The translations under genes and the position numbers were made by a program. From a virus (lineage: Duplodnaviria; Heunggongvirae; Uroviricota; Caudoviricetes): a stretch of 24,470 bases of DNA. Of this stretch, positions 7,854 through 24,320 are shown one piece after another. Location of the stretch: IMG/VR virus record IMGVR_UViG_2909272501_000001. One strand, written 5' to 3'. The notes beneath the pieces are model-generated. The model was not told the origin of the DNA. It saw nothing but the letters and a program-made list of their open reading frames with translations, and did not search any database. Positions within the stretch are counted from its first letter, which is position 1, and every line of letters begins with the position of its first letter.

Positions 7854-7888
7854 AATTCCCCGAAAATCCGCCCGTTTTTACTGAAAAA

Positions 7889-7972: not shown

Positions 7973-8017
7973 AGCGTGTCAGTGCAACTGCATTAAAACC
8001 GCCCCGCAAAGCGGGCG

Positions 8018-8036
8018 GGCGTGGCGGGGGGAGCAT
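8018..8036. other. cos-like site (candidate cohesive-end sequence)
   Basis: GGCGTGGCGGGGGGAGCAT matches 15 of 19 positions of the P2/P4 cohesive end as I recall it (GGCGAGGCGGGGAAAGCAC). It sits right after psu, where cos lies in P4, next to a GC-rich imperfect palindrome (7999-8019). Confidence 0.35.
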
Positions 8037-8118
8037 TGCGCGCTAAGGCTGATATTATAATTTTCTTTAATTCTATTTGGTATTTTGGCTTTATTCGTCA
8101 GAAGGAACGTTTAGAAAT

Positions 8119-8146
8119 AGACCACTACAATGGATTGTAGCGGTCT
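8119..8146 (-). terminator. Hairpin terminator candidate ending the int-RT-partner operon
   Basis: 12-bp inverted repeat AGACCACTACAA/TTGTAGCGGTCT (one G-U-compatible mismatch), 4-nt loop, ~10 nt downstream of the partner gene stop, followed by a modest T-rich tract on the minus strand. Confidence 0.4.
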
Positions 8147-8155
8147 GCATGATAT

Positions 8156-8896
8156 CTAGCGTTGCATTTCAGTTACTATGAAATTTTCTTCTGTAATAGA
8201 ATTCATTATCTCAAAGTACAATTCTTCAGGTTGAATAAACGCCAACTCTTTGCAAAGGTTGACAATGGTATCACTATAAGTGATACCCATCCGAGGATTG
8301 AAAAGCTCAAATCTCTTGATGTTTCTTTTGTTTTTTGAGTAAAAGTTTAAAGTGAAATATATTAGCACCTGTCTAAGATCGTAAACACTAAACTTCCTAT
8401 CTCCTGATTTTATTTCCACAAGAACATTTGAATAATAAATATCGCCATATGAATTATTTATTACTCCGCATCCATCGAATTGTGGAGACACTTCAATTTG
8501 GTTTTCCATTCCATATCGAGACAAAATGTTTCTTGCTATTTCCCTTATGGCATTGTACTCAACCATGCTTAAGGGTAGCTTGAAGTTAGAACCGTAAGCG
8601 AACCGCTGTAGATATTCTTTTGTTTTTTCAAAAACAACCTGAAAATCAGCATTATGGAAGATATCATGTGCTGAAAGAATATTTCTGTCTAACGAATCAT
8701 TCTGTATTGCCCTATATAAATTAAATGCGCACTCATTAACAAAGACGTTATTTGACCTATTAGCGCAGTCATCTAGAGGAGGATAAACGTCCTCGATGAG
8801 ACTGCCGTTAATGATGCGTATGAAATTATTAGCATTTGGAAGCAATTGATTCCAAAATGAAGTGAATTTTCGAGAAAACGTTAATTCAGATATCAT
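8156..8896 (-). CDS. Hypothetical 246-aa protein, partner of the reverse transcriptase; possible nuclease-like effector
   Basis: ATG overlaps the RT stop (ATGA at 8893-8896), with RBS GAGGA inside the RT 3' end. Very AT-rich. Segment GDIYYSNVLVEIKSG could be a D...ExK (PD-(D/E)xK-like) core, but this is unverified. Confidence 0.75.
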   Translation of the reverse strand: MISELTFSRKFTSFWNQLLPNANNFIRIINGSLIEDVYPPLDDCANRSNNVFVNECAFNLYRAIQNDSLDRNILSAHDIFHNADFQVVFEKTKEYLQRFAYGSNFKLPLSMVEYNAIREIARNILSRYGMENQIEVSPQFDGCGVINNSYGDIYYSNVLVEIKSGDRKFSVYDLRQVLIYFTLNFYSKNKRNIKRFELFNPRMGITYSDTIVNLCKELAFIQPEELYFEIMNSITEENFIVTEMQR

Positions 8897-10521
8897 AGCG
8901 CATCCTCAAGATTTCTTGCGGTATGCCTTTTACTTGCCCAATCCCTGTAAATCACCTCTACAAAGTTGAATGTTTTCTTATTATGCTCTCTCCAGTGCCG
9001 TCCTTCATCACCTAAGATGTAACTGGAAACGATCAATAGTCTTCTCTGCAACGGATGCATTGCAGAGAAATTTTTTTTGATATCAGAAAGCCATGCGTAA
9101 GAATTAATTTTTGCCATTGACTGTGTAACTATGTTCTTGACTAAGATGCTTTCTGGATTGTTATTGTATATTTCACTAAGGATTAGGGTGGATTTTTCTG
9201 AATTTTCTTTTGAGAGCATTCGGGCTACATAGGCTAAGTTGAGCTCAGTACTCAAAATATATGAATCTTGTTTAATTAGTGCAGTTATTTTATCAAGAAT
9301 AATATCTTTGGTTTCTGTGCTTAATTTTTGCCAGTTGGAGTTAGCTACTTGAATTATAGTTGTAAATATTGGATATAACTCATGCAAGTTATTAAACATT
9401 ACTTTGAAAGCACTACTTATTATTTCATCTGATGTTGCTGAGAATGCCTTTATCAAATGCTTGCTAAAAGATTGGTTAATTTTTGATTTTTGTAACTCAC
9501 TACTCAGCATAGCTAACAAGTCAAAATCTTTTAAAGATTCCTTTATCTCTTCATATTCCTCTATCGCATTTGCTGAGTAAGGATCGAATCTTATAGGAAG
9601 ACTCATAAATTTAGCCTTCATAGGAGATTCTTCATCTTCATCATTACCATGCAACTTAGCTTTAGTTACTGAAAGGAACTCTTCTTTAGTAACAATATTG
9701 GTTTTTTGTTTCTGTAAAGTTAGCCCTTCATTTTCCATCAGTTTTTTACTAAGCAAAGTTAAAATCTTATGAGCATCCTCTCTAGAGTTACAAAAAATAA
9801 CAAAGTCGTCGACATAACGCTTATAGTTGATTCTATTCATAGACAATAATTTATCAATAGAATCTAGAGCTAGTTCTGCTAATATTCTAGAGGCAGGACA
9901 TCCAACTGGTACTCCATATGATTTTGTTTCACTAAATGTCTGTAGTAATTTCTTGATTTTCCCAGAGTAATCTTTATTGGGGTCGACTCTATCTAACGCA
10001 TTTTCTAAACGGTGGTGATAAATACGCGGATAGAAATCTGCTATATCGCATGTAAGTACATACTTTATTTCATCGTTAGAACATTCAGAGATACTGTCTT
10101 CTTGATATTTTCTCCAAGAGATCTCTTTATCAAAAAGAGAACCATCAGCAAGGTTTGGTTTAAAGCGATATGAATAAACCTGCGTTTTAGTAGATCTATT
10201 CCTTTCAATATCATCAGCGATTTTTAAAACTAACCCAAGAAAAAAAGCATTCCAGAATGGATCAATTTGGGTCGCCCACCTGTAACCATAATAACCAATA
10301 CTTGAAAAGCTATTAATTATGTTTGGTGGAATCTCGATCCTTTTATTTTCAAAGTCATTAAATGTTTGCATTAATGCAGTTTTTACTTTCTCCTTATCAT
10401 CTTCAAATAACCGACTTTCAAATGGGTAAGGGAAAATATCTGTATCGCCGTGCTTTATAATATTTTCCAATGCAAGCTCAAAGCAATTTTCTAGTTTACT
10501 ACTATCAAACTCGTTACTCAT
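8893..10521 (-). CDS. Reverse transcriptase, 542 aa, with ~230-aa alpha-helical C-terminal extension; UG/Abi-like defence-associated RT candidate
   Basis: RT motifs in canonical order: LTCDIADFYPRIYHHRL (motif A-like), SYGVPVGCPASRILAELAL (motif B'-like), KRYVDDFVIF (YVDD catalytic motif C), NEGLTLQKQKTNIV (motif D/E-like). RBS AAGGAGA; start overlaps the int stop by 8 nt. No retron-type VTG motif seen. Confidence 0.85.
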   Translation of the reverse strand: MSNEFDSSKLENCFELALENIIKHGDTDIFPYPFESRLFEDDKEKVKTALMQTFNDFENKRIEIPPNIINSFSSIGYYGYRWATQIDPFWNAFFLGLVLKIADDIERNRSTKTQVYSYRFKPNLADGSLFDKEISWRKYQEDSISECSNDEIKYVLTCDIADFYPRIYHHRLENALDRVDPNKDYSGKIKKLLQTFSETKSYGVPVGCPASRILAELALDSIDKLLSMNRINYKRYVDDFVIFCNSREDAHKILTLLSKKLMENEGLTLQKQKTNIVTKEEFLSVTKAKLHGNDEDEESPMKAKFMSLPIRFDPYSANAIEEYEEIKESLKDFDLLAMLSSELQKSKINQSFSKHLIKAFSATSDEIISSAFKVMFNNLHELYPIFTTIIQVANSNWQKLSTETKDIILDKITALIKQDSYILSTELNLAYVARMLSKENSEKSTLILSEIYNNNPESILVKNIVTQSMAKINSYAWLSDIKKNFSAMHPLQRRLLIVSSYILGDEGRHWREHNKKTFNFVEVIYRDWASKRHTARNLEDAL

Positions 10522-11698
10522 TCACATTCTCCTTAATAAAAATATAATCTGAATACCACTGCATCATATCACGGCGTTTATCAATATATTGAGCATGATT
10601 ATACGTACCTCTAATATTATTCTTATCTATATGAGCAAGCTGTATTTCTATCCAAGCCGAATCATATCCTTTTTCGTGGAGGATAGTAGATAAGGAATGT
10701 CGAAATCCATGACCAGTAAGTTTTCCACCATAACCAATACGCTTGATAACTTGGTTAATACTCGCCTCACTCATAGGCTTGTTCGGATCGTTCCGCCCCG
10801 GAAAAACATAACTATACTTCCCTGTCATCATCTTGAGTTCATTTAGCAAATCTAACGCTTGAGTCGACAAAGGCACAAGGTGTGATCTGCGCATTTTCAT
10901 CCTTTCAGCAGGAATTTCCCAAATAGCGTTATCTAAATCAAATTCTGACCATAATGCCGCACGTAATTCGATGGTTCTAACACCTGTAATCATGAGCAAT
11001 TTCGTGGCAATCAGGACAAGCCGACTTCCGGTATATCCGTTTAAGGCGCGAAGAAAATCAGGTATCTCATTAGCCTTTAAGAACGGGAAATGATTTGATT
11101 GGTGTACATTGAGGGCGCTTGAAAGATCCGCAGCAGGGTTAAACTCAGCCCTTCCAGTAGCAATGGCATAGCGGAAAACTTCTGAGCATCGCTGCCGAAC
11201 TTTGCGCATTTTTTCTAATGCACCGCGCTTTTCGATTTTACGCAGCACATTAAGCAGTTCTAGCGGTTTAATCTCTCCCACTGGCCTTGTTCCCACATAA
11301 GGAAAAATGTCGTTCTTAAACGCTTCCATGATGTCTGATGCATATCCCGCCGACCATTTGGTAGACTTCTGTTGATGCCACTCTCTGGCTATCTTTTCGA
11401 AGGCGTTCTCTGACTCTGTTTGCAGAGCCAGCTTTTGCTCTTTTCGAACCTCACTAGGGTTCTTTCCTTCTGCCACAAGTTTTCGAGCTTCATCACGACG
11501 GGAACGAGCATCAGCAAGAGTGATCGTTGGGTAAACACCAAGCGAGATCATTTTGGGTTTACCGGCATAGCGATAACGAAATCGCCAGCTTTTACTTCCA
11601 TTTGGCTCTACAAGTAAAGACAACCCTTGCCCATCCCCAAGTGTATAGGCTTTAGCTTCAGGTTTAGCACGGCGAATCTGCATATCATTTAGGGGCAT
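10514..11698 (-). CDS. int: P4-type (DUF4102-family) tyrosine integrase
   Basis: 394 aa. N-terminal ...RRAKPEAKAYTLGDGQGLSLLVEPNGSKSWRFRYRYAGKPKMISLGVYP... is characteristic of P4/CP4-57-type integrases. Catalytic R...HxxR...H...Y residues (GVRTIEL, GHGFRHSLS, LAHIDKN..RGTYNHAQY). Confidence 0.88.
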   Translation of the reverse strand: MPLNDMQIRRAKPEAKAYTLGDGQGLSLLVEPNGSKSWRFRYRYAGKPKMISLGVYPTITLADARSRRDEARKLVAEGKNPSEVRKEQKLALQTESENAFEKIAREWHQQKSTKWSAGYASDIMEAFKNDIFPYVGTRPVGEIKPLELLNVLRKIEKRGALEKMRKVRQRCSEVFRYAIATGRAEFNPAADLSSALNVHQSNHFPFLKANEIPDFLRALNGYTGSRLVLIATKLLMITGVRTIELRAALWSEFDLDNAIWEIPAERMKMRRSHLVPLSTQALDLLNELKMMTGKYSYVFPGRNDPNKPMSEASINQVIKRIGYGGKLTGHGFRHSLSTILHEKGYDSAWIEIQLAHIDKNNIRGTYNHAQYIDKRRDMMQWYSDYIFIKENVNE

Positions 11699-11749
11699 GT
11701 GTATAGAATTCCAAAATCGAACAGGAACATATACATAATCCTATACACA
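11698..11749. repeat. Arm-type 9-mers near the int start: TGTGTATAG (11698-11706, inverted) and CTATACACA (11741-11749)
   Basis: Same 9-mer as at 613-633; the first copy overlaps the int start codon. Confidence 0.3.
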
Positions 11750-11861
11750 TTTAGTACTGGATTCTACTGGAAAGTTATGGACTAATACGAACAGTAAAAA
11801 CAAAAAATCTTTTATAAAACAGTGCGGTTATGGATAAATACGGATGTTTGAAGAAGTGGAG

Positions 11862-11881
11862 ATGGTGCCGATAATAGGAGT
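11862..11881. repeat. Right copy of the imperfect direct repeat; candidate att core shared by both elements
   Basis: ATGGTGCCGATAATAGGAGT, see 537-556. The first 9 nt (TGGTGCCGA) resemble the reverse complement of a tRNA 3' end, but no T-arm follows. Confidence 0.5.
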
Positions 11882-12023
11882 AAAACACTCGATTAATCTC
11901 GTGTTAATGCCATCACCTACGACCATTACTAATTGATTGAATCTGATAGAAAAATTATCATTTTCTATACCTTACAATCAATTTACACATTACAAACGCT
12001 CCGACACTTTAGCCGGAGATTTT

Positions 12024-13301
12024 ATGAGATACAAGCCTAACCAATACTTAATCTGTGATTCTTACGGTAACTACTATTTAAGGATCACGCTGCCTGTGTA
12101 TATGCAGCCCTTTTTTGAAGGAAAAAGGACGTTTGTCAGAAGTCTACACACAAGTAATCTTCGTGTGGCACGTCGAAAGCGTGATCAGATTGCAGATGAA
12201 TACCATTGCTTACGGGAGAGTGTTGCCCCTGTAAACAGCACAATAGAAAACACGCTGGAACTGTTACGCAGTAAGGCTAAATACGCCAAAACAGCTACCA
12301 GAATGCAAGATACAGCGTCTTCGTGTCCGTCATTGCTTAAAATTCTTGAAATCTACCTGACAATTAACAGCACGAAGAAGAAGCCAGCCACTTTAGCTAA
12401 GGCAAGAAAAGCGGTAGAGATGTTTCTCTCCTACCGTAAAAAGCCTGATATTGCATTGCAAGATGTAAGCCGCACCACTGTTACAGGCTGGATTGAACAC
12501 ATGCAAAAAACCCTTTCACAACAATCAATTGCAAATTATATCAGCCCAATGGTCCAGCTATGGGAGTTAGCTTCATCACGTTACCACGATGCGCCAGAAA
12601 GGGCGCTCTCCCCCTGGCGAGGGCATAGGCTTGATGTGGCACAAAGTAGAGAGAGCTACGAGGCATTTTCTAACAAAGAGCTATTGCAGGTGTTGCAAGT
12701 ATTTTCCGGTGATTCAGCAGAAAACAAAGAAATGACGGCTTTGTGTCTTATCGGTTTATATACAGGTATGCGGATCAATGAGATAGCAAGTATCACAATA
12801 GACGATGTGAAAGAGATCGAAGGTGTGCTGTGTTTTGAAATCACACAGGGAAAAACGAAAGCTGCGGCACGTCTTGTGCCTGTGCATAACCTTATCACTC
12901 CGTTGGTGTTGTCGCTGCGTGAAAAGCCTCACAATGGCTTTTTGTTCTATCACGCCAGCATTACAGAACGTGCTGACGGTAAACGCTCTACGTGGCATAC
13001 ACAACGATTTACAAGAGCTAAACGAAAGGCTTTAGGGGAAAAGGGAACAGAAAGGAAAGTGTTTCATTCTCTGAGACACGGAGTAGCACAGCTTCTTGAT
13101 CGAAATCAAATTCCAGAAGACAGGATCGCCCTTCTCCTGGGCCATACACGCGGCAATACAGAAACATTCCGCACATATAGCAAGAATGCAGCTTCTCCAG
13201 TAGAGCTTAAAAAATATATTGAGCTTTTACGCTACCCTGAAATAGAGAAAGGCTTATCAATCAATAAAAAATCAAATTTAAGGCGTAAAACAACGCCATA
13301 G
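12024..13301 (+). CDS. Second tyrosine recombinase/integrase (425 aa from the ATG at 12024; track ORF begins at a TTG at 11937)
   Basis: Catalytic signature GMRINEI (R), FHSLRHGVAQ (HxxR), LLGHT (H), TYSKN (Y). RBS GGAG 5 nt before the ATG. AT-rich. Confidence 0.75.
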   Translation: MRYKPNQYLICDSYGNYYLRITLPVYMQPFFEGKRTFVRSLHTSNLRVARRKRDQIADEYHCLRESVAPVNSTIENTLELLRSKAKYAKTATRMQDTASSCPSLLKILEIYLTINSTKKKPATLAKARKAVEMFLSYRKKPDIALQDVSRTTVTGWIEHMQKTLSQQSIANYISPMVQLWELASSRYHDAPERALSPWRGHRLDVAQSRESYEAFSNKELLQVLQVFSGDSAENKEMTALCLIGLYTGMRINEIASITIDDVKEIEGVLCFEITQGKTKAAARLVPVHNLITPLVLSLREKPHNGFLFYHASITERADGKRSTWHTQRFTRAKRKALGEKGTERKVFHSLRHGVAQLLDRNQIPEDRIALLLGHTRGNTETFRTYSKNAASPVELKKYIELLRYPEIEKGLSINKKSNLRRKTTP

Positions 13302-13381
13302 ACGTAATAAAGAGGCTTCAATATAGATTGATGCCTCTTTTATGATTATCTCGTTACAGAGCGTTTCATAGGCGTTTAAGG

Positions 13382-14059
13382 CTATTGTTTAAATACTGGC
13401 GTTACAACGTCTTGCCCTGGGCTTTTTTGATTTTTCTGTTCTGTTGTATTTACCTGCATTTTAACCTGTCCCCCTACAGATTTATTTGGTGCTGTTTTTA
13501 CAGCAATAGCATTAGTGGTGGCCTTAGAGACAAGACGAATTTGCTCAAAATCAAGAGTAAACAATAAGCTTTCGCTTGCTTCTTCTTCGTAAGACATGCC
13601 AACTAACACAACGTTGTCATAATTTTTTAACTCAGTGACAAGTAGGAAAGGTTGGCGACTGTCCATCAACTGATTTAGGTATTCAAGCATAAGCATACGT
13701 CGATTGCCGTTAATTCCCGCATTCTTAATCATATCGGGATTGAGTTTCAATACGGTTTCAGAGATACGCCCCTGTAATGTGAACTTGTTATTCCGTATTT
13801 GAACATGATCACTAACTTCTGATCCTGATTCGACGGCATAGCTTGTAACGTCTGCATTTCGGCTAACTTTCGTCGATTCCACGTTATCAAATGATAATGC
13901 CCGGTAGTCATTGTAAGCAGCATTTGCACCACTGCCGAGGTTAGAGGTAATAATCGCAAAGCCGTTACCCCCTTTAGTTGTTCTACCGTTGCTATCGTTG
14001 CTTGTGCTGTTGATTTTCGCCTCAGTCGGGCGACCAATGGTTAACGGACCCATTGCCAT
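13382..14059 (-). CDS. Hypothetical protein, 225 aa (possible virion-associated protein)
   Basis: ORF with RBS AAGGA; last gene of a co-oriented leftward block that includes capsid-like candidates. No recognisable motif. Confidence 0.45.
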   Translation of the reverse strand: MAMGPLTIGRPTEAKINSTSNDSNGRTTKGGNGFAIITSNLGSGANAAYNDYRALSFDNVESTKVSRNADVTSYAVESGSEVSDHVQIRNNKFTLQGRISETVLKLNPDMIKNAGINGNRRMLMLEYLNQLMDSRQPFLLVTELKNYDNVVLVGMSYEEEASESLLFTLDFEQIRLVSKATTNAIAVKTAPNKSVGGQVKMQVNTTEQKNQKSPGQDVVTPVFKQ

Positions 14060-14106
14060 AATTTGTAATCCTTATTTAAGGGGGCTAAACAGCCCCACAG
14101 TGATGA

Positions 14107-15948
14107 TTAATAGGTTGACCCGCCTGACATAACACCCAGCGTTAATAGCTTGCTAAACTCAGCGGAGGATGCCTTTGATTTGAAGTCGATAAATTCGCTC
14201 AATCGTCCGGTGTCTGATTCGATAGTTAGCGGCACTTCTGCATTTACTTGTAATTCTGGATTGAAGTTAATAACAGGTGCAAAGGTGTAAGAAGGAGTCT
14301 TGATAGCTTGTTGTGCTGCACTCTGTTTCAGATTTGCAATGTTTTGTCCTTCGAGAGTGTATTGATTTACAGCCTGCGCCCCGCCTACCGTTTCTTCTGG
14401 CGTAAACCAGCCTTTAATAGTGTTAAACAGGGAATTGCTGTTATCTGGCTTAGTTGTTCCGGTGCCAGCGCCTTTATATTGATCAGGAACGAGATTAGAA
14501 AGATTCTGTTTCATCCCTTCGTTAGACAGTGGCGGTGCATCACCTAAATTCTTCTGAATAGCTTCCGTCTTCTCGTCGTTTTTCATCAGCCAGTTGATTG
14601 CTTTCATTACGGCGTTAACCAATCCGCCGATAGCCTCGCCTAATTTGGTAAACATTGGCAGCATTGCAACCATACTCTTTTTGAACTCTTCAATCACAGC
14701 AGGATCGAGAGATTTCATAAAGCCATCAACAAAGGCGATCCCTTGTGAGTCAGAAAGCCCACTAAGTGCATTATTCAGTTCACGGAATTTAATAACGCTT
14801 TCCTGTTGTGCCTGTGTTACCCAGCGCCCTGATTCTCGTTGTTCTCGTGCTGATTGTTCCACTTCTTTAGCGGAGCGTGTCCAGTATTTAGAGGTGAGCA
14901 TCAAATCATCAGCCAGATCTTCCAGACGACTACCGATTTGTGCATCTGAATAGCCTTTAGCTACCATTCCCTGAACTGCTTTACTAACCAGACCAGCCGG
15001 ATTATCAGCAAAGTCTTTTAGATCCTTTTTAGTTAGGAATCCTTCATTCATTAAAGTATTGATGCCGCTATCGCCGCCCTTCCATTCTCCTTTACCAGTT
15101 TTCTTATCAACTACATATTCAGCTTCATCATAAGATTTGGTTGCACGTTCACGCACATCTTTCATCTGATCCAGATACTTACGTTTACCTTGTTCGCCCA
15201 TCATTGAATCAACGCCGTTTTTATACGCCCATTGTTCAACATCGTTCATCTGGTTAACGTCTACACCGCCCAGCTTCGCACGGCTATACAATTCACCCAG
15301 CGTTTCAGCATTCGCAAAGCTGTTAGTAACAAATTCAGAGGCTTTGCTCATAGCCATATACGTAGCGCCAGCGCCTAAGCCACCCAGCATAACAGCCGCA
15401 GCACCGCCGCCAATACTCCCGCTACCCTTAACAGGTGCATAGGCTTTAGCGTGAGCGTTACGATTGCCATTAATCTTACGTTGTTGCTGTTGTAGGCGTT
15501 TCATTTGGCTATTCATACGTGCCAGACTAATAGCGCCTCTTTCATATTGGAGGGCAATTTCTCTAGCCTGTGCAATAGCTTTATATTGTTCCGCTACAGA
15601 AAGACGGTGCATTGCACTAATGCTTGATCCAACGTCTAAAAGCTTTAATTCTGCCTTCTCTTTGCGTGCTGCCAGGGCTTTTTGTTCTCTTGCAACTACA
15701 CGTTGAGCGGCTAATTGTGCTTTAGCATTGGCTTTATCTGCCTGTGCTTGCTTTTTAGCAATATCGTCTACGTCTTTTTTTGCTTTAGCGGTTGATTGTT
15801 TATGTGTCTTAACACGCAATTCTATATCTTTCACCGCCGCCATTTGTTTACGAAGTTTTTCTACTTCTGCTTTTGCTTTCTCTAATGATGGTCGATCAAC
15901 CTGGAAGGTGACAACGTTTGATAAGCGGCTGACGTTAAGTTCTAACAT
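14107..15948 (-). CDS. Large coiled-coil / Gly-rich protein, 613 aa; tape-measure-like or other minor virion structural protein candidate
   Basis: N-terminal ~170 aa is Lys/Ala/Gln-rich with heptad-like periodicity, followed by a Gly-rich hydrophobic segment (GSIGGGAAAVMLGGLGAGATYMAM) and then a globular region. RBS AGGGA. Confidence 0.55.
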   Translation of the reverse strand: MLELNVSRLSNVVTFQVDRPSLEKAKAEVEKLRKQMAAVKDIELRVKTHKQSTAKAKKDVDDIAKKQAQADKANAKAQLAAQRVVAREQKALAARKEKAELKLLDVGSSISAMHRLSVAEQYKAIAQAREIALQYERGAISLARMNSQMKRLQQQQRKINGNRNAHAKAYAPVKGSGSIGGGAAAVMLGGLGAGATYMAMSKASEFVTNSFANAETLGELYSRAKLGGVDVNQMNDVEQWAYKNGVDSMMGEQGKRKYLDQMKDVRERATKSYDEAEYVVDKKTGKGEWKGGDSGINTLMNEGFLTKKDLKDFADNPAGLVSKAVQGMVAKGYSDAQIGSRLEDLADDLMLTSKYWTRSAKEVEQSAREQRESGRWVTQAQQESVIKFRELNNALSGLSDSQGIAFVDGFMKSLDPAVIEEFKKSMVAMLPMFTKLGEAIGGLVNAVMKAINWLMKNDEKTEAIQKNLGDAPPLSNEGMKQNLSNLVPDQYKGAGTGTTKPDNSNSLFNTIKGWFTPEETVGGAQAVNQYTLEGQNIANLKQSAAQQAIKTPSYTFAPVINFNPELQVNAEVPLTIESDTGRLSEFIDFKSKASSAEFSKLLTLGVMSGGSTY

Positions 15949-15982
15949 GCTAATTGTTTCCCTGTATTATGATTGTTGTTTA

Positions 15983-16180
15983 TTATTGTTTTTTAGAGCA
16001 ATAGTATTGAATTGCTTCGAAAGTGCTGCATCCAGTCTGAAAGACACGCTGACGCACATTATTTGCATCAATTTCTAAAAGGCGGCAAAGCGCCGATGTG
16101 TTTATAACTGATTCCTCGCTAATAGCTGCCAGTTCTTTTACAGATTTAAGAATTAATGCCTGTGAATTTTCTGCGTTCAT
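15983..16180 (-). CDS. Small hypothetical protein, 65 aa
   Basis: ORF between the 343-aa and 613-aa genes; no motif recognised. Confidence 0.3.
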   Translation of the reverse strand: MNAENSQALILKSVKELAAISEESVINTSALCRLLEIDANNVRQRVFQTGCSTFEAIQYYCSKKQ

Positions 16181-16335
16181 TGGTTTTCTCTCACATATAT
16201 ATTTTTATTTGGGTTTGTAGACAGTAGAAAAAAAATAAGGGCAAGAGACAGCGCATATTTTGCTTATATGATTATCCCTTACCCTTATTGCCCCGATTAT
16301 TTCCAGACGATGGGGAATCGTCTATTAACGCTTTA

Positions 16336-17367
16336 TTACGCAGCAGATCCGAAGATGATAGCTTGCGGAATGTTGTTTACTGGCAGATAAGATGTCTCAG
16401 TAACCACAGATGGGAATTGGAATTCATCCTTGATTAGATATTGGTGATGTAACACGGCATCTTGACCTAACTCAGCATGACGCACACCAACGCCGCTATG
16501 AAGCTGATAGCACTGTGCCGCTTTATCCATTACTGGAACAATTGCGAAACCGTTCTCTCCGATGTGAGCAACAATCTCAGGAAACATTGACACATCAATA
16601 ACAGTGATCCCACCAATCTGGAAAGAGTCATAGGCTGGGTTAGAATCAACCATACGGGTAAACAGGGCCGTAGCACTCGCATCACCTGCATATTTCACCA
16701 TGTCACTGATCAGCGGGTTAGATGACAAACCATCAGCAGCAGCGCCAGCAGCAAAGATAATTACACCAGTTCGCTTTGCAGCAAGACCAGACCCCAGCTT
16801 TTCACTCTGTAAGCGCACCGCTTTACGAATAGCAAGGAACGGGTTAACAGTAGTCGATGCAAAGTCGATAGCGGGTACCGTGGTTTTAGCCTGACCGTCG
16901 AGGAAGTCGAGATCACCTTGTCCGGCATATTCAGATTCAACTTTCAGGCCCAGCAGCGCGGTAATCAGATCCACTTCAACACGGTTTGCGTGTGAACGGT
17001 AATGTGCCTCAGAGAAATCATTAACCGCTACCAGCATAGCATCAGAACGGTTTGGATATTGGCGGCTGTATTGTTCCAGGTCACGAGAAGTAACAGCGTT
17101 AATACTGCCGACGTGTTTCATCTGGAAAAGTTTGTTTGACCATTCCTGACGTTTAGAGGCGTTCCAGTCGCTTTGAGCGTAAGGCGAGGTTTCCCCAGCT
17201 ACCTGCACAAACTGATCAATCAGGTCGGTAAGAAGAATGCTGTTTTCTGTATGATATTGCACATCGAACAGATCGAGATTAGTAATCAGGGTATTAAGTG
17301 CATTCTCATAAGCAAATGGAGTTACTACCGCAGTATTAACGCCAAAATATGTTGATAAATCATTCAT
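16336..17367 (-). CDS. Hypothetical protein, 343 aa; major-capsid-like candidate (speculative)
   Basis: Size and position directly after a ~125-aa decoration-like gene resemble the lambda D/E arrangement. No direct sequence similarity to lambda gpE that I can confirm by eye. Confidence 0.5.
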   Translation of the reverse strand: MNDLSTYFGVNTAVVTPFAYENALNTLITNLDLFDVQYHTENSILLTDLIDQFVQVAGETSPYAQSDWNASKRQEWSNKLFQMKHVGSINAVTSRDLEQYSRQYPNRSDAMLVAVNDFSEAHYRSHANRVEVDLITALLGLKVESEYAGQGDLDFLDGQAKTTVPAIDFASTTVNPFLAIRKAVRLQSEKLGSGLAAKRTGVIIFAAGAAADGLSSNPLISDMVKYAGDASATALFTRMVDSNPAYDSFQIGGITVIDVSMFPEIVAHIGENGFAIVPVMDKAAQCYQLHSGVGVRHAELGQDAVLHHQYLIKDEFQFPSVVTETSYLPVNNIPQAIIFGSAA

Positions 17368-17381
17368 TATTATTTTCCTTG

Positions 17382-17765
17382 TTAAGTCGTAGGGATCGCA
17401 AGTTCTTCATAACCAGCAATTACAAAGCCGAGAGATTGCAGTTTTGCAATAACACTTGCCTTTTCCATACTGTTAAATTCAATCCCATCTTCAGCCAGAA
17501 TAACGAAAGTAGGATGTGCAACCACTACGCTTTCCTGTCCTTCATAAGCCGGTTCAACCACTACGTGAGCAATATCAGAAGCGGTTGTTGCTTTGGTGCC
17601 ATCGGCTTTCAGCAAAGCCCCGACAATAAGATCGTCAGTGAGAGGTGAAGCCAGTTTGACGAGGCGATCTTGCAGCACTGGATCAGCAGCGTAAGCTACT
17701 ACCTTACAGCGTGAACGGGAATTATCCGCATTCACTGCTTTTAATTTTCCATATGGGTTAGCCAT
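17382..17765 (-). CDS. Hypothetical protein, 127 aa; head-decoration-like candidate (speculative)
   Basis: Small Ala/Val-rich beta-type protein starting MANPYGKLKAVNADN..., immediately upstream of the 343-aa gene. Confidence 0.45.
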   Translation of the reverse strand: MANPYGKLKAVNADNSRSRCKVVAYAADPVLQDRLVKLASPLTDDLIVGALLKADGTKATTASDIAHVVVEPAYEGQESVVVAHPTFVILAEDGIEFNSMEKASVIAKLQSLGFVIAGYEELAIPTT

Positions 17766-17769
17766 AAGA

Positions 17770-17967
17770 TTATTTTCCTTTCAGTTGTTTAATTTTAGAT
17801 TTAAGGGCATCAGCAAGACTAACCGCATCAGCCGATTTAAATAATTGAGCAGTGGTAGAACGAAGACTTTCGGGAGTAACTCCCAACAGTGCGGCAACCT
17901 TAATGAGGTTTTCATCACTAACAATCATCGTTTCCCCGTCTTTGCTGATAATCATTTCTTGTTTCAT
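17770..17967 (-). CDS. Small hypothetical protein (65 aa from the ATG with RBS AGGAAC; track ORF extends to 18009)
   Basis: ORF with plausible RBS; first gene of the leftward structural-like block. Confidence 0.3.
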   Translation of the reverse strand: MKQEMIISKDGETMIVSDENLIKVAALLGVTPESLRSTTAQLFKSADAVSLADALKSKIKQLKGK

Positions 17968-18948
17968 AAATAACGTTCCTGTTAGTGCCAGACAAATAAA
18001 AAGCCCCAATGCCGTAAGAGGTTCTGACCAGCAAAGGGGCTTTAACGTGCGGGCAATTACATAATTGATAAGTTAAACTATAAGAGGATTAAACATATCA
18101 GCAAATACACTTTTTAAATATACTTGATGATATGCTTAAAGGGTGAATAGATACTCCTGAAAACATGCTCTTAAGAAAACATGCGGAATCAATCAGGAAT
18201 ATCTATTCGGGGCGCGGTGGCTAACCGCTATCTTTCATGGTGTGGATGCACCAGTCAGATTTTAAGGAATCACTATTCCAATCTACTCACAGATTAAATT
18301 TTTAATAAGGATTAACTACACCAACAGTAATCTACCGTTTCAGAAAATCGTTTCACAACCAAAGATTATAGATCCGCATTCTATAAAACCCGTTTTGCTA
18401 TCAATATTTCCAAAGTTTATTGCACCATTCTTAGCTAAACTCTCTCTACTTGCGGCTAACGCTATGCAGATGATAGTTTTTTGACAACAACTTAATAGAT
18501 TATTCTGTTACTAACTTCCGTCATTAAATAAGAGTTTAATGATGTTAGTAAATAGTTATAAAATATAACTATCAGTGTAAGGCTCTTTAATGTTTTCGGA
18601 CAAAATAAGGAGCTTTAGGATAAGCATAGATGAAAAATAAGAGCGGGAAGGGCAAGGAGATAACACCTACCCGCTTTTATCAAAAATTAAGCACAATGCC
18701 TAACAACATTCATCAACACAACGTAGAAACAATCAACAATCAAAGAGGGAGTTATGATTATTCTAAAACTTCTTGATAGATGGAAGGTAATATTTGTTAG
18801 AGGTTAATGCCACTCAACCTTTGAGGCTATCACCTTCCATATGCAGGGATTTATGACAGTAGAAGGATTAACACCAACTAAAATCTTTTAATCTACCCCT
18901 AAAATTATTATATAACAAAATCATCATAAATGCAAATGATTTTCATTA

Positions 18949-19251
18949 TCATTTAGAGAAAATAGCACTTTTTGCTAAATCATTTACTAATTGCTGAATC
19001 TCTTCACTTGCAGCCTTTAACGTGCTGGCGGTGTCTGTGATGGTTTGAGTGCACATCTTGGCATCTGATAGCTCTAAATCGCTCACCAGAGAGACAAAAT
19101 CTTCTAAGCATACATTGAGCTTCATTAAGCTAATAACGCATTGAGAGAGCGTATAATCGCATAAATCTGAATAGGCTTGATTTATTCTTGTTTGTAGTGA
19201 GATAGTCAGATCTAAAAGTTGTTCCATTGCATTGCTAATATCTTCTTCCAT
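18949..19251 (-). CDS. Hypothetical acidic helical protein, 100 aa
   Basis: ORF; start ATG overlaps the stop of the upstream 81-aa gene. Confidence 0.4.
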   Translation of the reverse strand: MEEDISNAMEQLLDLTISLQTRINQAYSDLCDYTLSQCVISLMKLNVCLEDFVSLVSDLELSDAKMCTQTITDTASTLKAASEEIQQLVNDLAKSAIFSK

Positions 19252-19496
19252 TATGCGTATTCTCCTTGTAATGCATCATTAATCATATTCAATACGATGT
19301 TAAAAGGTGTCTTGAGCGTCAGCACTTCATCACGGTAACGTTCTAATGCTTCGTAGTCTTCTGTTTCTTTTGCCAGCCGGATTAACTCAGCATAGTTTTT
19401 TGCATCAGACAGGAGCATCTGAAATAATTGTGTTTCTTGAATATAGCCAATCATTATTTTTCCTTTTTCGAATATTTTCATTGGGCGCTTATACAT
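19251..19496 (-). CDS. Hypothetical protein, 81 aa
   Basis: ORF in the co-oriented operon downstream of the rep-like gene. Confidence 0.4.
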   Translation of the reverse strand: MYKRPMKIFEKGKIMIGYIQETQLFQMLLSDAKNYAELIRLAKETEDYEALERYRDEVLTLKTPFNIVLNMINDALQGEYA

Positions 19497-19511
19497 ACGC
19501 CCGTCTTTCTA

Positions 19512-19892
19512 TTAGTTAGAACGTTTGTTAGATGCGAGAGTGTCGATCAGGTGCTGCATCAGATCTGTTTCTGTAACGCCGCCTACCTGATTGTTGAACG
19601 AATTGAAGCCTGTATAGTGACGAAATGAGGTAAAGCCTAACAATTGCCATTTCTTCAATGTGCCAGGTTCTATAATCGTTGTCTTTCTTGTTCTGGGTTT
19701 GAAATACACACCATCACCCATTGATTGAATAATTTCTAATTCTTCGTTTGTAAGTGGTGGGCTGTTAGATTCTAAAATGAAGACTATCTCTTCACCTGCT
19801 TCTTCATTATTCTTATAAACTTGCTTTCTTACGTCGTTGAAGGTGTTCCCTTGCTCAATACGTTTTAAGTTGTTCTTTTTCTTTCTTCCCAT
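19512..19892 (-). CDS. Hypothetical protein, 126 aa, basic N-terminus
   Basis: ORF with RBS GAGGGA; N-terminal MGRKKKNNLKR. Confidence 0.45.
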   Translation of the reverse strand: MGRKKKNNLKRIEQGNTFNDVRKQVYKNNEEAGEEIVFILESNSPPLTNEELEIIQSMGDGVYFKPRTRKTTIIEPGTLKKWQLLGFTSFRHYTGFNSFNNQVGGVTETDLMQHLIDTLASNKRSN

Positions 19893-20026
19893 TTTCCCTC
19901 TTTTTATGTGGATTATAAAAACTGAATGCCATAGTTACGATGAATATTGCTACAAATGCACTTGCCATATGTATTGCCCGATCTGTTGTTACTGATTGTT
20001 TGTGATGTTATAAATCATTTATTTCC

Positions 20027-20596
20027 TTAAAAGGGTAGTGAATCATATATTGTGCTCTCACTTTTGAGATCAATTATCAAAGAGTCAAAATCATTTTCAC
20101 AAAGATAGATATTCTTTGAATCTAATGCTCGTTTTACAAAATCTTCTGTTTCTTCGTGCGGTGGTTTCTTCTTATCAAGGGAAAGAAGCCAAGTAAAAAT
20201 TTCGGGCCGCTCAGGGAACTCTGGCTCTTGTGTTTCTTCTTCAACGATGATTTCGGAAACATTCAATATTTCATTAGATTCGTCTTCTTTCTCAGAAGGA
20301 TCAGGTAGTGATGATTCTCCTTTTGGAATATCAAGCACTCGATAAAGGTTAGAGCTTCCTGGTCGTGCATCTTTTATAATTAATCCCATTTCGAGCAATT
20401 TCTTAACCCTTTCTTCTGCTGCTCTTGGTGTTATGCCAAAAACATCGCCTATCTTAGCGTAAGAGGGAAATGCACGATCAAACCCTCTCAGATAGCAGTA
20501 AAGGTTTTTAGCACTATCTGTAAATTTATGCCCGTTTACTTGGCTTATTTTTAGAATCCACATAGGAACTTTTACAAATTGTTCTTCATTAATCAT
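20027..20596 (-). CDS. Winged-helix DNA-binding protein, 189 aa from the ATG at 20596; replication initiator / replisome-organiser-like candidate
   Basis: RBS AAGGAGA 5 nt before the ATG. Segment NLYCYLRGFDRAFPSYAKIGDVFGITPRAAEERVKKLLEMGLIIK resembles wHTH initiator N-domains. Acidic C-terminal half. Same operon as an RHH protein and downstream of the iteron cluster. Confidence 0.5.
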   Translation of the reverse strand: MINEEQFVKVPMWILKISQVNGHKFTDSAKNLYCYLRGFDRAFPSYAKIGDVFGITPRAAEERVKKLLEMGLIIKDARPGSSNLYRVLDIPKGESSLPDPSEKEDESNEILNVSEIIVEEETQEPEFPERPEIFTWLLSLDKKKPPHEETEDFVKRALDSKNIYLCENDFDSLIIDLKSESTIYDSLPF

Positions 20597-20649
20597 TAAA
20601 AATCTCCTTGATGTAATCACGCTCTACGGCGCTACTATGGTGATAAAAA

Positions 20650-20820
20650 TCACTTGCTTTTGTTTGAGAGTGTTTCAGCCTCTCTTTTCAACATATCAAG
20701 AATGTAATCTGTAACAGTGATACGTTTACTTCTGGCTTCTTTAAACAACACCTGAAATACTTCATCAGGAATATGAAAGCAAGTGCGTGGTTGCCTTTTC
20801 TTTTCTGTAGTTTCGCTCAT
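20650..20820 (-). CDS. Ribbon-helix-helix (CopG/Arc-like) DNA-binding protein, 56 aa from the internal ATG
   Basis: Strong RBS AAGGAGA before the ATG at 20820. Sequence KRQPRTCFHIPDEVFQVLFKEARSKRITVTDYILDMLK fits the RHH beta-strand-helix-helix pattern. Confidence 0.55.
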   Translation of the reverse strand: MSETTEKKRQPRTCFHIPDEVFQVLFKEARSKRITVTDYILDMLKREAETLSNKSK

Positions 20821-20839
20821 AGTTTTCTCCTTCTCTTCT

Positions 20840-21040
20840 TTACTCTGTTTCAGATTCTTTTTCAGATCCTTTTTCATTTTTTCTTAATTCATCAATAATT
20901 TTTAGTGCATCGTCAAAGCATTTTTCACGCTCTGGATAACCACAGCGTCGCGCTGTGTTCCTGTTCATCCTTACTTTAAAACGGTTGATCTCACCACGTT
21001 TCCAGGCTTCCACAATATCCTGTGGAGTGAAATATTTCAT
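20840..21040 (-). CDS. Hypothetical small protein, 66 aa
   Basis: Strong RBS AGGAGG before the ATG at 21040; first gene of the leftward operon below the iteron region. Confidence 0.45.
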   Translation of the reverse strand: MKYFTPQDIVEAWKRGEINRFKVRMNRNTARRCGYPEREKCFDDALKIIDELRKNEKGSEKESETE

Positions 21041-21883
21041 TAATTAACCTCCTATTCTATTTAGTTAAAAGAAATAGACACCTTGCAAGCCTTGGGCTTC
21101 AAAGTGCGATGCATTGGTTTAATTATTTAAAGGATAAGAATGTTTTCCTGCCCCTAATATTACTTTACCACGACTAAAGGCTTTTGTCAACCCCCCAGCC
21201 ATAAAAATATTGATCATTTTCAGTGTGTTATGATTTTTCTTAGCAATTCGTGCTCTTACGAATACTCCAATTCTTCATTATTGTCTAAAACGCTCTAAAA
21301 CGCGTTCTAACGAGGTTTTGATAAAAACAATACATTCCCTTATGTAATGGCTGTTTAGCTCGCCTACGGTTTGATTTAAGCGGTAGAAACTCATCTACTA
21401 CCTAACATCTTTAAACCATATTTTTCTTTTTTGTCTGTTTGATGGTTGATCTATAGTTATGCGTTAGCATCCCCAAAGGGGTAACGCTACCCTAATTGCA
21501 TTCGCAAGAACATTGCACAAGAAATTTATTTTAGATGATTGATGATCGTTAGATGGTAGTTAGTTAATTATCGTTCTGCGCACAGCGCAAGACTATTTAG
21601 CCTTACGCAAGCCGTAGGCTATTTGCACATAGTAGATTACATATTCGTTGTGAGCGGAAAGCGAACATAGATCTACTAACTAACATTAACAAACAAAAAC
21701 TATGTGTTATGAGAAGTATCAGTCTAACTGACTAACACTCTAACTTGTGCAAGGTTCTGGCGAATGCCAATAGATTAAGGGATAGTCGAAGACTCCCTAA
21801 CGGGTATCCCTATAATTATTCTTTAAAGATAAAAGAATTTATAAAAGATAATTTAATTGTAGTTTGATAGTTGATCTAATAGG

Positions 21884-22021
21884 TAACAAAATTCTGTAGG
21901 GGTGGCTAACAGTTTTCTGTGGGGGTGTCTAACATAATTCTGTTAGGGTTGGGGTAACAGTTTTCTGTTAGGGTGCATATTTCTTTAAAAGTTAAGGATA
22001 ACAGAATTCTGTGGGGGTAGC
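21884..22021. repeat. Iteron cluster: five ~23-bp direct repeats, consensus TAACA(n)3TTCTGT(n)GGGGT
   Basis: Copies begin at 21884, 21907, 21930, 21955 (tandem, 23-25 bp spacing) and 21999 (after an AT-rich spacer), upstream of the operon containing the RHH and wHTH genes. Confidence 0.6.
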
Positions 22022-22854
22022 TCACAGTGACCTACCGTTACATCCATCACATAACATCTGTGCAATGATCTTCTTATAATCAGTAAAAGTCTTTCTTGCT
22101 ATCAAAAATTAAACATCTAAAACAAGCTTAAATTCAAGATTAATTGATGATTAATCCCTGTGTAATTCCATACTAAAAAATCCAAGAAAAATGGCTTCAA
22201 AATGCAATTCTTACTTTCTTCACTTTTGCGTCATCATCAGCAAAGCCTTATGTTATGCGGCATATAGCGCATCACTGCAAAATTGTTGCTCAATAAACGT
22301 TCTATCATTTGTTGAACAAGTTCTTTCACGTGTTGAAAATTTATGTTTAAATTTGCTTTCAATCTTTAATGTGCAATCACTATCAACATAAAAATAAAAA
22401 ATCTTCTATTATATTTCATAGCATACAAAAGTCAATAGAAGCCCTCTCGTGCTCCTACGTAAAAAATCCACCATTTTTCCCCTGATACATCAACTCAAGG
22501 CGTTCTATGTGTTCCTTAGTGCATATTACGATTATTATGTTAAATGTATTTTGGCCTATATTTTGACCTGCACCCGCATAAACACTGGTTTCATCGCTTA
22601 CAGCCCTTGTGAGACGTGGTGCTGTTTCTAGCATCTGATCCGACATAAAACCGATCATTCTCGTGTTTAGTGAAAGTTTAGTGAGAGACATTACAGAAAG
22701 GCTTTCTGTGTAATGATTTAATAGGTAAAAACGATGTTGATTACGCAAGAAAATTCCTTGCTGATATTTGGGGATTCTGGATTTTCCAGATCGGGGGGCG
22801 CTGAAAATCGCGTTAAGCACCTCTCGCAATCTAGCCATAAGGGAGGGGATTCAT

Positions 22855-22929
22855 ATGTATTTAGATGTATTTATAGCTATTTATGGCTATTTATTTTTTA
22901 TTTACCTTTATTTGAAAACAACCTTATAA
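22855..22929 (+). CDS. Candidate 24-aa hydrophobic peptide MYLDVFIAIYGYLFFIYLYLKTTL
   Basis: ATG 5 nt after a strong SD (AAGGGAGGGG). Very short, so a coding call is tentative. Confidence 0.25.
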   Translation: MYLDVFIAIYGYLFFIYLYLKTTL

Positions 22930-23146
22930 ATCAATAAGATACAGAACAACCTGTTTATATTTTAATCACTTAAATTACGTTTAATACCCTTAAATCACCT
23001 GAAAATAACCTTAAATACCCCAATAATTAATTTTAACGATTCCTGTGCTCTCTTCTACATTGCAAAAAGGCAAAAAAAGCCCATAGAGGCACAAAAATAT
23101 TAAAACCAATAACTCAATAATGCCTCTACAAGAGCTTCTCTAACTG

Positions 23147-23698
23147 TTATTTTTGATTGAGCTTACATCGATCCCATTGTTCTGTCGTTCTTGTGATACG
23201 ATCGCTTATTGCAAAATTTAATAGCCAAGAATCATAAGCATAAACCTTGCTTTTATCATCTGCCATCATAAACTTGCCGTTAGCATTCAGTTTTGGCGAT
23301 ATCAAATATGTTCCATTTAATCTGTTAGCCTTGAAGCTATCTGCATATAAAGTTACTTGTGCGTATCCCTGAACACGTAATGCCCCTAAACGTCCGTTTT
23401 CGATTGATGCAATAGAGTATTGGCAAAGATAATTTTTGGCAGCAGGAGTCGTTTTCACTCCTTCAGTTTTTCGTGAATTATTTGATTGCGAGCTTCGAAT
23501 AGAGGATGAAGGATAAGAGTATGAATGATTTTTATAAGATGAAGGGGCATAAGAGCCAATCCGGCACGTCTTACCAACAGCTATACACGAGTTACCACAA
23601 GGTATTCCTTTTTTGCAGTTTTTAGCAACTGCGGTAGAAGTTCCCCCTACAAACAACGTTGTAAAAATCATCATCCTCACAAATGCAGACCTGCGCAT
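23147..23698 (-). CDS. Secreted Cys-rich protein, 183 aa
   Basis: N-terminal signal-peptide-like segment (MRRSAFVRMMIFTTLFVGGTSTAVA), then a 4-Cys cluster (CKKGIPCGNSCIAVGKTC), a Ser/Tyr-rich linker and a C-terminal domain. Confidence 0.55.
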   Translation of the reverse strand: MRRSAFVRMMIFTTLFVGGTSTAVAKNCKKGIPCGNSCIAVGKTCRIGSYAPSSYKNHSYSYPSSSIRSSQSNNSRKTEGVKTTPAAKNYLCQYSIASIENGRLGALRVQGYAQVTLYADSFKANRLNGTYLISPKLNANGKFMMADDKSKVYAYDSWLLNFAISDRITRTTEQWDRCKLNQK

Positions 23699-24092
23699 AT
23701 AACCTCCCTTTTTAGATTATTCTTATGCTATACACTTGCTTAAAAAAATAAAAGTGCCCTCTAACCTTTATCGTTCTCCATCACAATTTGAGAAGTAAGA
23801 GCAGCAACCTCAAGCGATGATCACGTTTGCGCCGATTTCAGAGAAAAAGACAGTAACTGAACTCACTATGAAGGCTAAACGTATCTTTACACTTGATGAA
23901 AACGTTCAAAAAACAACCTAACCCCAAAATTCAACAAATAACAACATATTGTTTTTAAAAGAAAATTAAATCTACATCAAATATTGGTTGACGTAGATTG
24001 AGGTGAATAGTAGACTATTAGGGTAAATTGCCATTCTTGCAACATCATTTAATGCATGTTCTAATCCTCCTATCCCAAAACCGGAGGAAGTT

Positions 24093-24251
24093 ATGCATTT
24101 ACTTTCAAAACATCTTCACACTATTCACTTTCTCGTTATTGATGTATTCATTGTGGCTATTAGTTACCGCATTTGCATCGCTTCCAGTGAAGAGATGGAC
24201 GCTGTTGCAATTATTGCTCAAGCAATGGCGATGTTAACTAAACGACTTTAA
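24093..24251 (+). CDS. Candidate small protein, 52 aa, hydrophobic N-terminal half
   Basis: ATG 5 nt after SD GGAGGAAG; below the 60-aa cut-off of the ORF track. Possible -35/-10 pair (TTGACG, 17 nt, TAGACT) at 23979-24007. Confidence 0.3.
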   Translation: MHLLSKHLHTIHFLVIDVFIVAISYRICIASSEEMDAVAIIAQAMAMLTKRL

Positions 24252-24320
24252 TAATTTCACTATCAGGCGCATAAACACATCTTTGATCGCTGGATGTGTT
24301 ATGCGCCTACTGGTGATTCA

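Follow-up and report, generated by a model that had tools for sequence, protein, structure and literature searches.

A capsid and tail-core gene block in an Escherichia coli island points to a probable satellite family of phi92/phAPEC8-type phages

What does a compact run of virion-like genes do in a stretch of DNA that offers neither a terminase nor a portal? The question is raised by a 24,470-nucleotide window (the whole stretch of DNA analysed here, IMG/VR virus record IMGVR_UViG_2909272501_000001, assigned to the Caudoviricetes), in which six co-oriented open reading frames (ORFs) occupy the minus strand between positions 13382 and 18009 (Table 1). A first-pass annotation made from the sequence alone had proposed that these include a decoration-like and capsid-sized pair and a tape-measure-like protein, had seen no terminase, portal or tail genes, and had named a capsid-forming satellite and a degraded prophage as alternatives. 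Our analysis identifies four of the six products as homologs of head and tail proteins of phi92 and phAPEC8, virulent myophages of the Stephanstirmvirinae. We consider it reasonably likely that the block is the virion-protein module of an integrative, self-replicating element of ~13.2 kb that parasitises virulent phages of this type, and the element probably represents an undescribed family of phage satellites that would build their particles partly from their own and partly from stolen components.

The six ORFs are genuine genes rather than chance reading frames, because four of their products have significant homologs, all six are kept in related islands and their ratios of non-synonymous to synonymous substitution rates (dN/dS) are low. 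Purifying selection acts on every one of them: among Escherichia coli variants, dN/dS is 0.08-0.20 in the four assigned genes, and the two ORFs of 65 codons have values of 0.05-0.55. Positions and sizes agree with the first-pass annotation, with one refinement for the outermost ORF: started from a TTG at 18009 it would encode 79 residues, but this version enters the terminator hairpin upstream of the block, so the ATG at 17967 is the better start and gives a protein of 65 residues, as in the RefSeq annotation. A direct Pfam scan of the 343-, 613- and 127-residue proteins and of both 65-residue proteins returned nothing above threshold, and identification beyond Pfam relied on PHROGs, PDB sequence searches, profile-profile comparison and structure prediction. 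The products assigned as a capsid cement protein, a major capsid protein (MCP), a tape measure protein (TMP) and a tail-tube initiator are homologs of phi92 gp123, gp124, gp134 and gp135, respectively, and their phAPEC8 counterparts are gp115, gp114, gp104 and gp103. The gene order, from cement through MCP and TMP to tube initiator, is identical to that of both phages, while ~20 phage genes that lie between or around these four are absent from the island.

Contrary to the earlier impression that no tail genes were in view, the 613- and 225-residue proteins both belong to virion tail families. The 225-residue protein matched the Pfam family PF21821 (Dit_like) with an E value of 2e-27 (96 bits, cutoff 24) and shares 53% identity with phAPEC8 gp103. 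Among PDB chains, it matched Phi92_gp135 (E 1e-53), the phiTE tube initiator (E 1e-9) and Pam3 gp17 (E 8e-4). For the phi92 counterparts, functions follow the cryo-electron microscopy study of this phage, in which gp135 is a hexameric tail-tube initiator on the baseplate hub (PMC13450770). On this homology the 225-residue protein is identified as a tail-tube initiator, and its gene has a dN/dS of 0.08-0.10. The 613-residue protein, rightly suspected of being tape-measure-like, matched the tape measure family phrog_16051 (E 3e-33), phAPEC8 gp104 (E 2e-24) and Phi92_gp134 (chain 21vq_V, E 1e-21), matches that identify it as a TMP. It is 25-31% identical to the phage TMPs and 46-49 residues shorter than those of phi92 and phAPEC8, from which, at 1.5-1.6 Å per residue, a tail shortening of ~7 nm is predicted. 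Island TMPs share with the proteins of the presumptive helper phages the N-terminal ~25 residues and a C-terminal 'LTL..SGQSSTGG' tail, and in phi92 it is this end of the TMP that was resolved within the hub (PMC13450770). TMP length stays within 600-627 residues across 13 islands, despite only 22-36% identity between genera, and the gene has a dN/dS of 0.13-0.15. The 65-residue ORF that opens the tail unit matched nothing in Pfam or PHROGs; it possibly encodes a small helix-turn-helix protein, a distant counterpart having a weak HTH_28 match. Profile comparison ruled it out as a homolog of phi92 gp133 or as a tail assembly chaperone (TAC).

In the head unit, the 343-residue protein gave a weak PHROG match (phrog_29, major head protein, E 1e-4), and a profile of island MCPs aligned with a profile of the phi92, phAPEC8, slur12 and K54_rec5 MCPs at an hhalign probability of 98.3% (E 1.7e-14, 303 columns). 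The Pfam family PF03864 was matched by 11 of 15 members of the MCP family, relatives with 42-56% identity, and not by the window protein itself. The AlphaFold2 model of this protein is of low confidence (pLDDT 55, pTM 0.57); all 30 of its fold matches with E <= 1e-3 are HK97-fold capsid or encapsulin proteins, the best being phiTE (E 1e-9), the ICP1 coat protein, Bas63, Sf14 and lambda, with TM-scores of about 0.5. Taken together, the profile alignment and the predicted fold identify the protein as an HK97-fold MCP, and its gene has a dN/dS of 0.11-0.20. The first homolog search with the 127-residue protein found close E. coli copies only and was repeated with an alignment of diverse island copies. 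Profile comparison with phage cement proteins gave an hhalign probability of 76% (E 2e-5), with controls below 0.3%. For the AlphaFold2 model of this protein (pLDDT 78, pTM 0.70), the top Foldseek matches were decoration proteins that form beta-tulip trimers, from phiTE, Sf14 and Bas63 (E 1.5e-5 to 2.5e-4, TM-score about 0.6), followed by SHP and lambda gpD. The cement gene lies directly upstream of the MCP gene, stopping 14 bp before its start, and model and profile agree in identifying its product as a beta-tulip capsid cement or decoration protein. The decoration-like and capsid-sized pair of the first-pass annotation is thus borne out. The 65-residue ORF that opens the head unit had no family match in Pfam or PHROGs.

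The HK97 fold is also that of encapsulins, some of which appeared among the weaker fold matches of the MCP, and small HK97-encoding elements with neither portal nor tail genes are on record (bioRxiv 10.1101/2025.06.18.659913). Both observations would fit a non-viral use of the capsid-like protein, such as an encapsulin-like compartment or a domesticated particle with no relation to a helper phage. We find this scarcely credible: the nearest structures are T=13 myophage capsids, not encapsulins, the partner genes encode a phage cement protein and a TMP and tube initiator whose ends are helper-like, genes for cargo or enzymes are absent, and the element shares near-identical patches of DNA with current lytic phages.

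Three such patches were found, with 85-92%, 98.9% and 100% identity to present-day Phapecoctavirus and Justusliebigvirus genomes. The first is a stretch of the tube-initiator gene (13479-13855) that is 85-92% identical to Phapecoctavirus at the nucleotide level. The second (20283-20637) comprises the first 104 codons of a gene for a Rep-like protein together with 17 bp upstream, is 98.9% identical in nucleotide sequence to gp053 of the Phapecoctavirus Mt1B1_P17 and 94% identical to phage BI-EHEC; residues 1-104 of the Rep-like protein are identical to the N-terminus of Mt1B1_P17 gp053, a protein of 328 residues that apparently carries a second, similar winged-helix repeat. This degree of identity indicates that the Rep domain was exchanged between island and phage very recently. 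The third is a non-coding 40-mer shared without a mismatch with phi92-like phages, within a wider non-coding stretch (22763-22840) of about 80-96% identity over 46-78 bp. Each phage has a single copy of the 40-mer, within a large non-coding region that precedes the first early gene. The island copy is inverted with respect to local transcription, and RNA transcribed across it in the island would be antisense to that of the phage. It was not found in other islands of the family. As a 40-nucleotide complement of a helper early-region transcript it might act as a sensor or regulator; conceivable roles include regulatory RNA, binding site, origin and packaging site. Beside this motif, the AT-rich segment 22850-23030 carries repeated ATAAATA(G/C) and TTAAAT(A/C)CC motifs.

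The near-identical patches point to recent recombination, and therefore to island and phages having been resident in the same cells. Homology searches lead to the same phages: the phage homologs of the TMP and tube initiator are headed by Stephanstirmvirinae-type phages, as are those of the TMP of a Klebsiella island, and more distant homologs of the tube initiator occur in other large lytic myophages. In the GenBank record of phi92 itself, a 'hypothetical tRNA' is annotated at 9044-9136 inside the tail sheath gene, which is probably an annotation artefact.

The element that carries the block spans ~13.2 kb between 21-bp att repeats and is inserted at a tRNA-Thr gene (thrW). Its left repeat lies in the window, and the second copy of the 21-mer is the 3' end of thrW, about 630 bp past the right window end. 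The window is chromosomal DNA of E. coli: positions 11700-24470 are 100% identical to strain AH25, and in strain AR436 an identical element meets a different neighbouring island exactly at the att repeat. Next to the left border lies a gene for a tyrosine integrase with DUF6538, SAM-like and Phage_integrase domains, convergent with the structural block. Beyond the leader of the block lie the gene for the Rep-like protein, which has a winged-helix, O-like initiator N-terminal domain, and five ~23-bp iterons (GGnTAACAGwwTTCTGTkrGGGTG) with a palindrome-like core, TAACAGwwTTCTGT, within a non-coding gap of 1.15 kb. Similar repeats occupy the equivalent place in the Klebsiella island (about 5084-5153 of its locus), and the array is likely to be a replication origin; the iterons were not found in the 6-kb segment of Mt1B1_P17 searched around its shared Rep domain. 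An Arc-like protein and several small ORFs complete the gene set.

Among all element proteins, no Pfam or PHROG match was found to a terminase, portal, protease, scaffold, connector, TAC, sheath, tube, hub or spike. The possibility of a hidden portal, scaffold, adaptor, TAC or hub among the other island proteins was rejected, since an all-against-all profile screen of these against the phi92 structural module reached a maximum hhalign probability of 3%. The remark that no terminase or portal was in view therefore holds for the whole element, which has no neck or fibre genes either. Generic satellite features are present, namely its own integrase, att sites, replication genes and an incomplete virion and packaging set comprising the four virion homologs.

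The same architecture recurs in at least 10 Enterobacterales genera (E. coli, Klebsiella, Citrobacter, Buttiauxella, Kosakonia, Phytobacter, Kluyvera, Scandinavium, Raoultella and Yersinia): small ORFs, Arc-like protein, Rep, small ORF, cement, MCP, small ORF, TMP, an optional tube initiator and a DUF6538 integrase, orthologs of which stand at the end of every related island. Insertion sites of the family are tRNA-Thr, tRNA-Gly(CCC) and tRNA-Leu, and the elements with both borders mapped measure 12.7-14.3 kb. The E. coli variants are mosaic, the MCP of the window being 84% identical to that of one variant and 56% to that of another, with TMP identity of 87% to both. The family is small and specific, because a sensitive profile search of 1.84 billion proteins returned only 60 representatives; of 5,426 complete E. 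coli genomes, 88 contain most of the element and 870 contain parts of it. In one type of distant relative, the gene set is extended by a phiTE-type head-tail adaptor (PF26075) and a PF26210 protein, and a 152-residue ORF stands in place of the tube initiator. Another, on a 9.2-kb contig, has cement and MCP without a TMP, together with a shorter integrase and a resolvase.

These data bear on the degraded-prophage half of the first-pass proposal, under which a once-complete temperate phage, related to the phi92/rV5 type, would be decaying at thrW with the block as its remnant. In favour of this reading, phage structural genes lie next to an integrase with the other virion genes missing, and IMG/VR flags such regions as viral. 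Decay is hard to reconcile with genes that are all intact and under purifying selection (dN/dS 0.08-0.20), with the same minimal set in the same order across those genera at MCP identities down to 29%, and with exact att borders and an identical element that has different neighbours in different strains. Moreover, the MCP gave no tblastn match at E <= 1e-3 in any of 50,697 phage genomes, and the related phages have no integrase in the records examined. The remnant explanation is thus largely refuted and we hold it to be highly improbable, while the evidence favours the satellite half of that proposal.

The block is organised as two units, head and tail, that are bracketed and split by predicted terminators. 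One intrinsic terminator lies directly upstream of the head unit and has an equivalent in most related islands, and a strong one, with a long stem and T8, follows the MCP gene directly. The latter also recurs in most related islands, and phAPEC8 has an annotated terminator at the same place after its MCP gene; the layout of terminator, head unit and terminator is found across the family. Within the tail unit, the TMP and tube-initiator genes have a hairpin (14081-14096) between them, and the hairpin with a T-rich tail that follows the tube-initiator gene is probably the terminator of this unit. From their arrangement, expression of the block may be gated by terminator read-through. Upstream of the block lies a non-coding leader of ~900 nucleotides with a sigma70-like promoter at 18936-18907. 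Two leader blocks (18214-18273, 60 nucleotides, and 18863-18876) are shared by two E. coli variants whose MCPs are only about 56% identical. The 60-nucleotide block folds into two hairpins with compensatory changes between two variants, which a third variant does not clearly keep, and these changes weakly suggest a covarying two-hairpin leader RNA; the leader matched no Rfam family. A helper-specific late-promoter motif common to island and phage was considered and rejected, the phages using ordinary sigma70-type promoters after their terminators, and the conserved leader motifs of the islands were not found in the phage segments compared.

Together, gene content and shared DNA suggest how a satellite of phi92/phAPEC8-type phages could work. 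Upon helper infection, the element would leave thrW and replicate from the iteron origin, and transcription would pass the terminators that bracket both structural units. Island capsid and cement proteins would then form a shell on the helper portal and scaffold, most likely smaller than the T=13 head of the helper and fitted to ~13 kb, to be filled by the helper terminase. By means of their helper-like ends, the island TMP and tube initiator would fit into the baseplate hubs of the helper, after which helper tube and sheath would polymerise into chimeric tails ~7 nm (roughly two tube rings) shorter. The particles would spread the island by way of the helper fibres and receptor, and helper yield would probably be lowered by the diversion of helper parts. 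A more specific proposal, for and against which we see the case as evenly poised, is that the element is the founding member of a group of Enterobacterales satellites of phi92/phAPEC8/phiTE-type virulent myophages in which both the shell (MCP and cement) and the tail core (TMP with or without tube initiator) are substituted, and portal, terminase, neck, sheath, tube, baseplate and fibres would come from the helper.

Several points weigh against the satellite interpretation. Helper dependence is deduced from gene content and shared DNA only, the elements being known from sequence, and the use of helper portal, scaffold and cement sites by the island MCP is a prediction only. This MCP is only about 20-24% identical to those of the helpers, the cement protein is likewise remote, and confidence in the structural model of the MCP is low (pLDDT 55). 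The tail shortening predicted here, about 7 nm, is small and would bring no obvious benefit. The tube initiator is present in some members only and a distant 9-kb relative has no TMP, so tail-core substitution is not universal. A search of IMG/VR for packaged units of ~13 kb returned prophage-type predictions from isolate genomes only, not virome particles, and neither a packaging signal nor a small terminase was identified in the element.

The last of these points is also what an island that is never packaged would be expected to look like. The four homologs could be poison or decoy subunits that spoil the assembly of helper heads and tails and thereby shield the bacterial population, which would make the element an assembly-interference defence island, and the helper-like interaction ends retained by the island proteins would suit this role equally. 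The Tai systems are said to be defences that act on phage tail assembly. Tail assembly is moreover a known target of satellites and defence islands, for example of Rta of PLE11 (PMC11838301). We nevertheless judge pure interference to be unlikely, though deserving of attention. A full-length conserved MCP, a matching cement protein and a length-constrained TMP point to building rather than blocking, and no PADLOC defence family was matched among the element proteins. Integrase, att sites and a replicon of its own belong to the element as well, and its family is spread over many genera and three tRNA sites, for which a transfer route is needed. Finally, interference and transduction are compatible in known satellites.

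Table 1. Features of the element and its surroundings. Coordinates are window positions unless stated otherwise; gene products are named as predicted.
Feature	Coordinates	Strand	Remarks
att repeat GATGGTGCCGATAATAGGAGT	11861..11881	.	left border
Tyrosine integrase	12024..13301	+	425 aa (454 aa from TTG at 11937)
Hairpin with T-rich tail	13306..13340	-	after tube-initiator gene; between convergent integrase and block
Tail-tube initiator	13382..14059	-	225 aa; homolog of phi92 gp135 and phAPEC8 gp103
Tape measure protein	14107..15948	-	613 aa; homolog of phi92 gp134 and phAPEC8 gp104
Small ORF opening tail unit	15983..16180	-	65 aa; conserved, in 10 loci
Strong intrinsic terminator	16228..16289	-	directly after MCP gene; divides head unit from tail unit
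Major capsid protein, HK97 fold	16336..17367	-	343 aa; distant full-length homolog of phi92 gp124 and phAPEC8 gp114
Cement/decoration protein, beta-tulip	17382..17765	-	127 aa; counterpart of phi92 gp123
Small ORF opening head unit	17770..17967	-	65 aa, from ATG; conserved in E. coli variants
Intrinsic terminator	17994..18043	-	directly upstream of head unit
Non-coding leader	18044..18948	-	~900 nucleotides, upstream of block
Rep-like winged-helix protein	20027..20596	-	O-like initiator N-terminal domain
Five ~23-bp iterons	21881..22019	+	candidate replication origin
Non-coding 40-mer	22790..22829	-	40/40 identical in phi92-like phages
Extra genes of distant relatives	8065-8544 and 13348-13806 of their loci
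P4-like alpha primase-helicase	1030-3363
P4-like Sid-like ORF	5910-6710
P4-like Delta	6707-7207
P4-like Psu	7281-7853		intact
P4-type integrase	10514-11698

The remainder of the window (1-11698) is a P4-like satellite that stands in tandem with the studied element at thrW and is independent of it. In addition to the genes listed in Table 1, it carries DUF5375 and Ash. In AH25 its psu gene is split by an IS21-family element, an insertion that the window does not have. The P4-like hotspot (8156-10521) has a low GC content (~33%) and contains a DRT type 8 defence pair, consisting of a Drt8 reverse transcriptase of 542 residues (PADLOC E 5e-166) and a PD-(D/E)XK partner of 246 residues (E 6e-69).

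Known satellites either remodel a stolen capsid (P4, SaPIs and PLE) or bring a whole head module (cf-PICIs), and the substitution of a tail part was first shown in 2025, for PLE. If the satellite interpretation is correct, an island that supplies only shell, cement, tail ruler and tube initiator would follow a third strategy, and tail-core substitution would extend to the Enterobacterales. The open-access papers and preprints searched contain no description of satellites of phAPEC8-, phi92- or rV5-type phages, and to our knowledge dual-substitution islands would be the first satellites of virulent coliphages of the phi92/phAPEC8 group. The presumed helpers, which comprise phi92, phAPEC8 and further Stephanstirmvirinae, find wide use in therapy and biocontrol directed at E. 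coli and Klebsiella, and a resident satellite could cut phage yield or move host DNA during phage treatment. Such islands would also offer a natural experiment, in which an MCP ~20% identical to that of the helper works with a foreign portal and scaffold, on the determinants of T number and tail length.

Comparison with known systems places the element between several of them. It resembles the P4-like satellites, also tRNA-integrated in E. coli and of about 11-13 kb, and like them would redirect the morphogenesis of a myophage. P4 encodes no virion proteins and has the P2 capsid resized by Sid and Psu, whereas positions 11861-24470 contain no homologs of Sid, Psu, Delta or the alpha primase and the shell protein is self-supplied. 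With the Stephanstirmvirinae themselves it shares the four homologs in the same order and a terminator after the MCP gene, but it is integrative and measures ~13 kb against about 148 kb for the phage genomes. The cf-PICIs are Enterobacterales islands of ~12-19 kb that bring the whole set of head and packaging genes (for small and large terminase, portal, protease, capsid and head-tail connectors), have no tail genes and take only tails from temperate helpers. The element is likewise an integrative Enterobacterales island with its own HK97-fold capsid, for which the rest of the particle would come from a helper; it differs in that Pfam, PHROG and profile screens found no terminase, portal, protease or connectors, in the addition of cement, TMP and tube initiator, and in phage relatives that are virulent T=13 myophages. 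The acinetobacterial element Phanie was set aside as a comparison, since it appears to be a phi29-like satellite.

According to a preprint, the extracellular prophage-inducing particles (EPIPs) of Mycolicibacterium encode their own MCP and TMP and have smaller heads and an altered tail length; their gene set further includes a small terminase, scaffold, adaptor and stopper, along with a serine integrase (PMC12822802). The element likewise encodes both an MCP and a TMP; the EPIPs differ in having an actinobacterial host and a long-tailed prophage helper and in lacking cement and tube initiator. For the tail, the closest parallel is with the PLEs, which according to another preprint encode their own TMP and, in some, a hub or central baseplate protein, 19-41% identical to those of ICP1, and form chimeric tails 10 nm shorter than those of ICP1 (PMC11838301). 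Like the PLEs, the element would be a small integrated satellite of a virulent phage with a contractile tail, and it has its own TMP and an optional baseplate-side gene, which is the tube initiator here and the hub BhuB in PLE; incorporation of its TMP into helper tails is a prediction from a TMP gene with helper-like ends. The element has its own MCP and cement, whereas PLE uses the ICP1 coat. This coat protein is reportedly remodelled by the external scaffold TcaP. The two also differ in host (E. coli against Vibrio cholerae), in the tyrosine integrase and in a helper lineage other than that of ICP1, and the profile screen found no TAC homolog in the element. PLE was compared by gene content and description, and homology to TcaP was not specifically searched for. 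By analogy, the element would be most like a cf-PICI or an EPIP, with its own capsid, combined with a PLE, with its own tail core.

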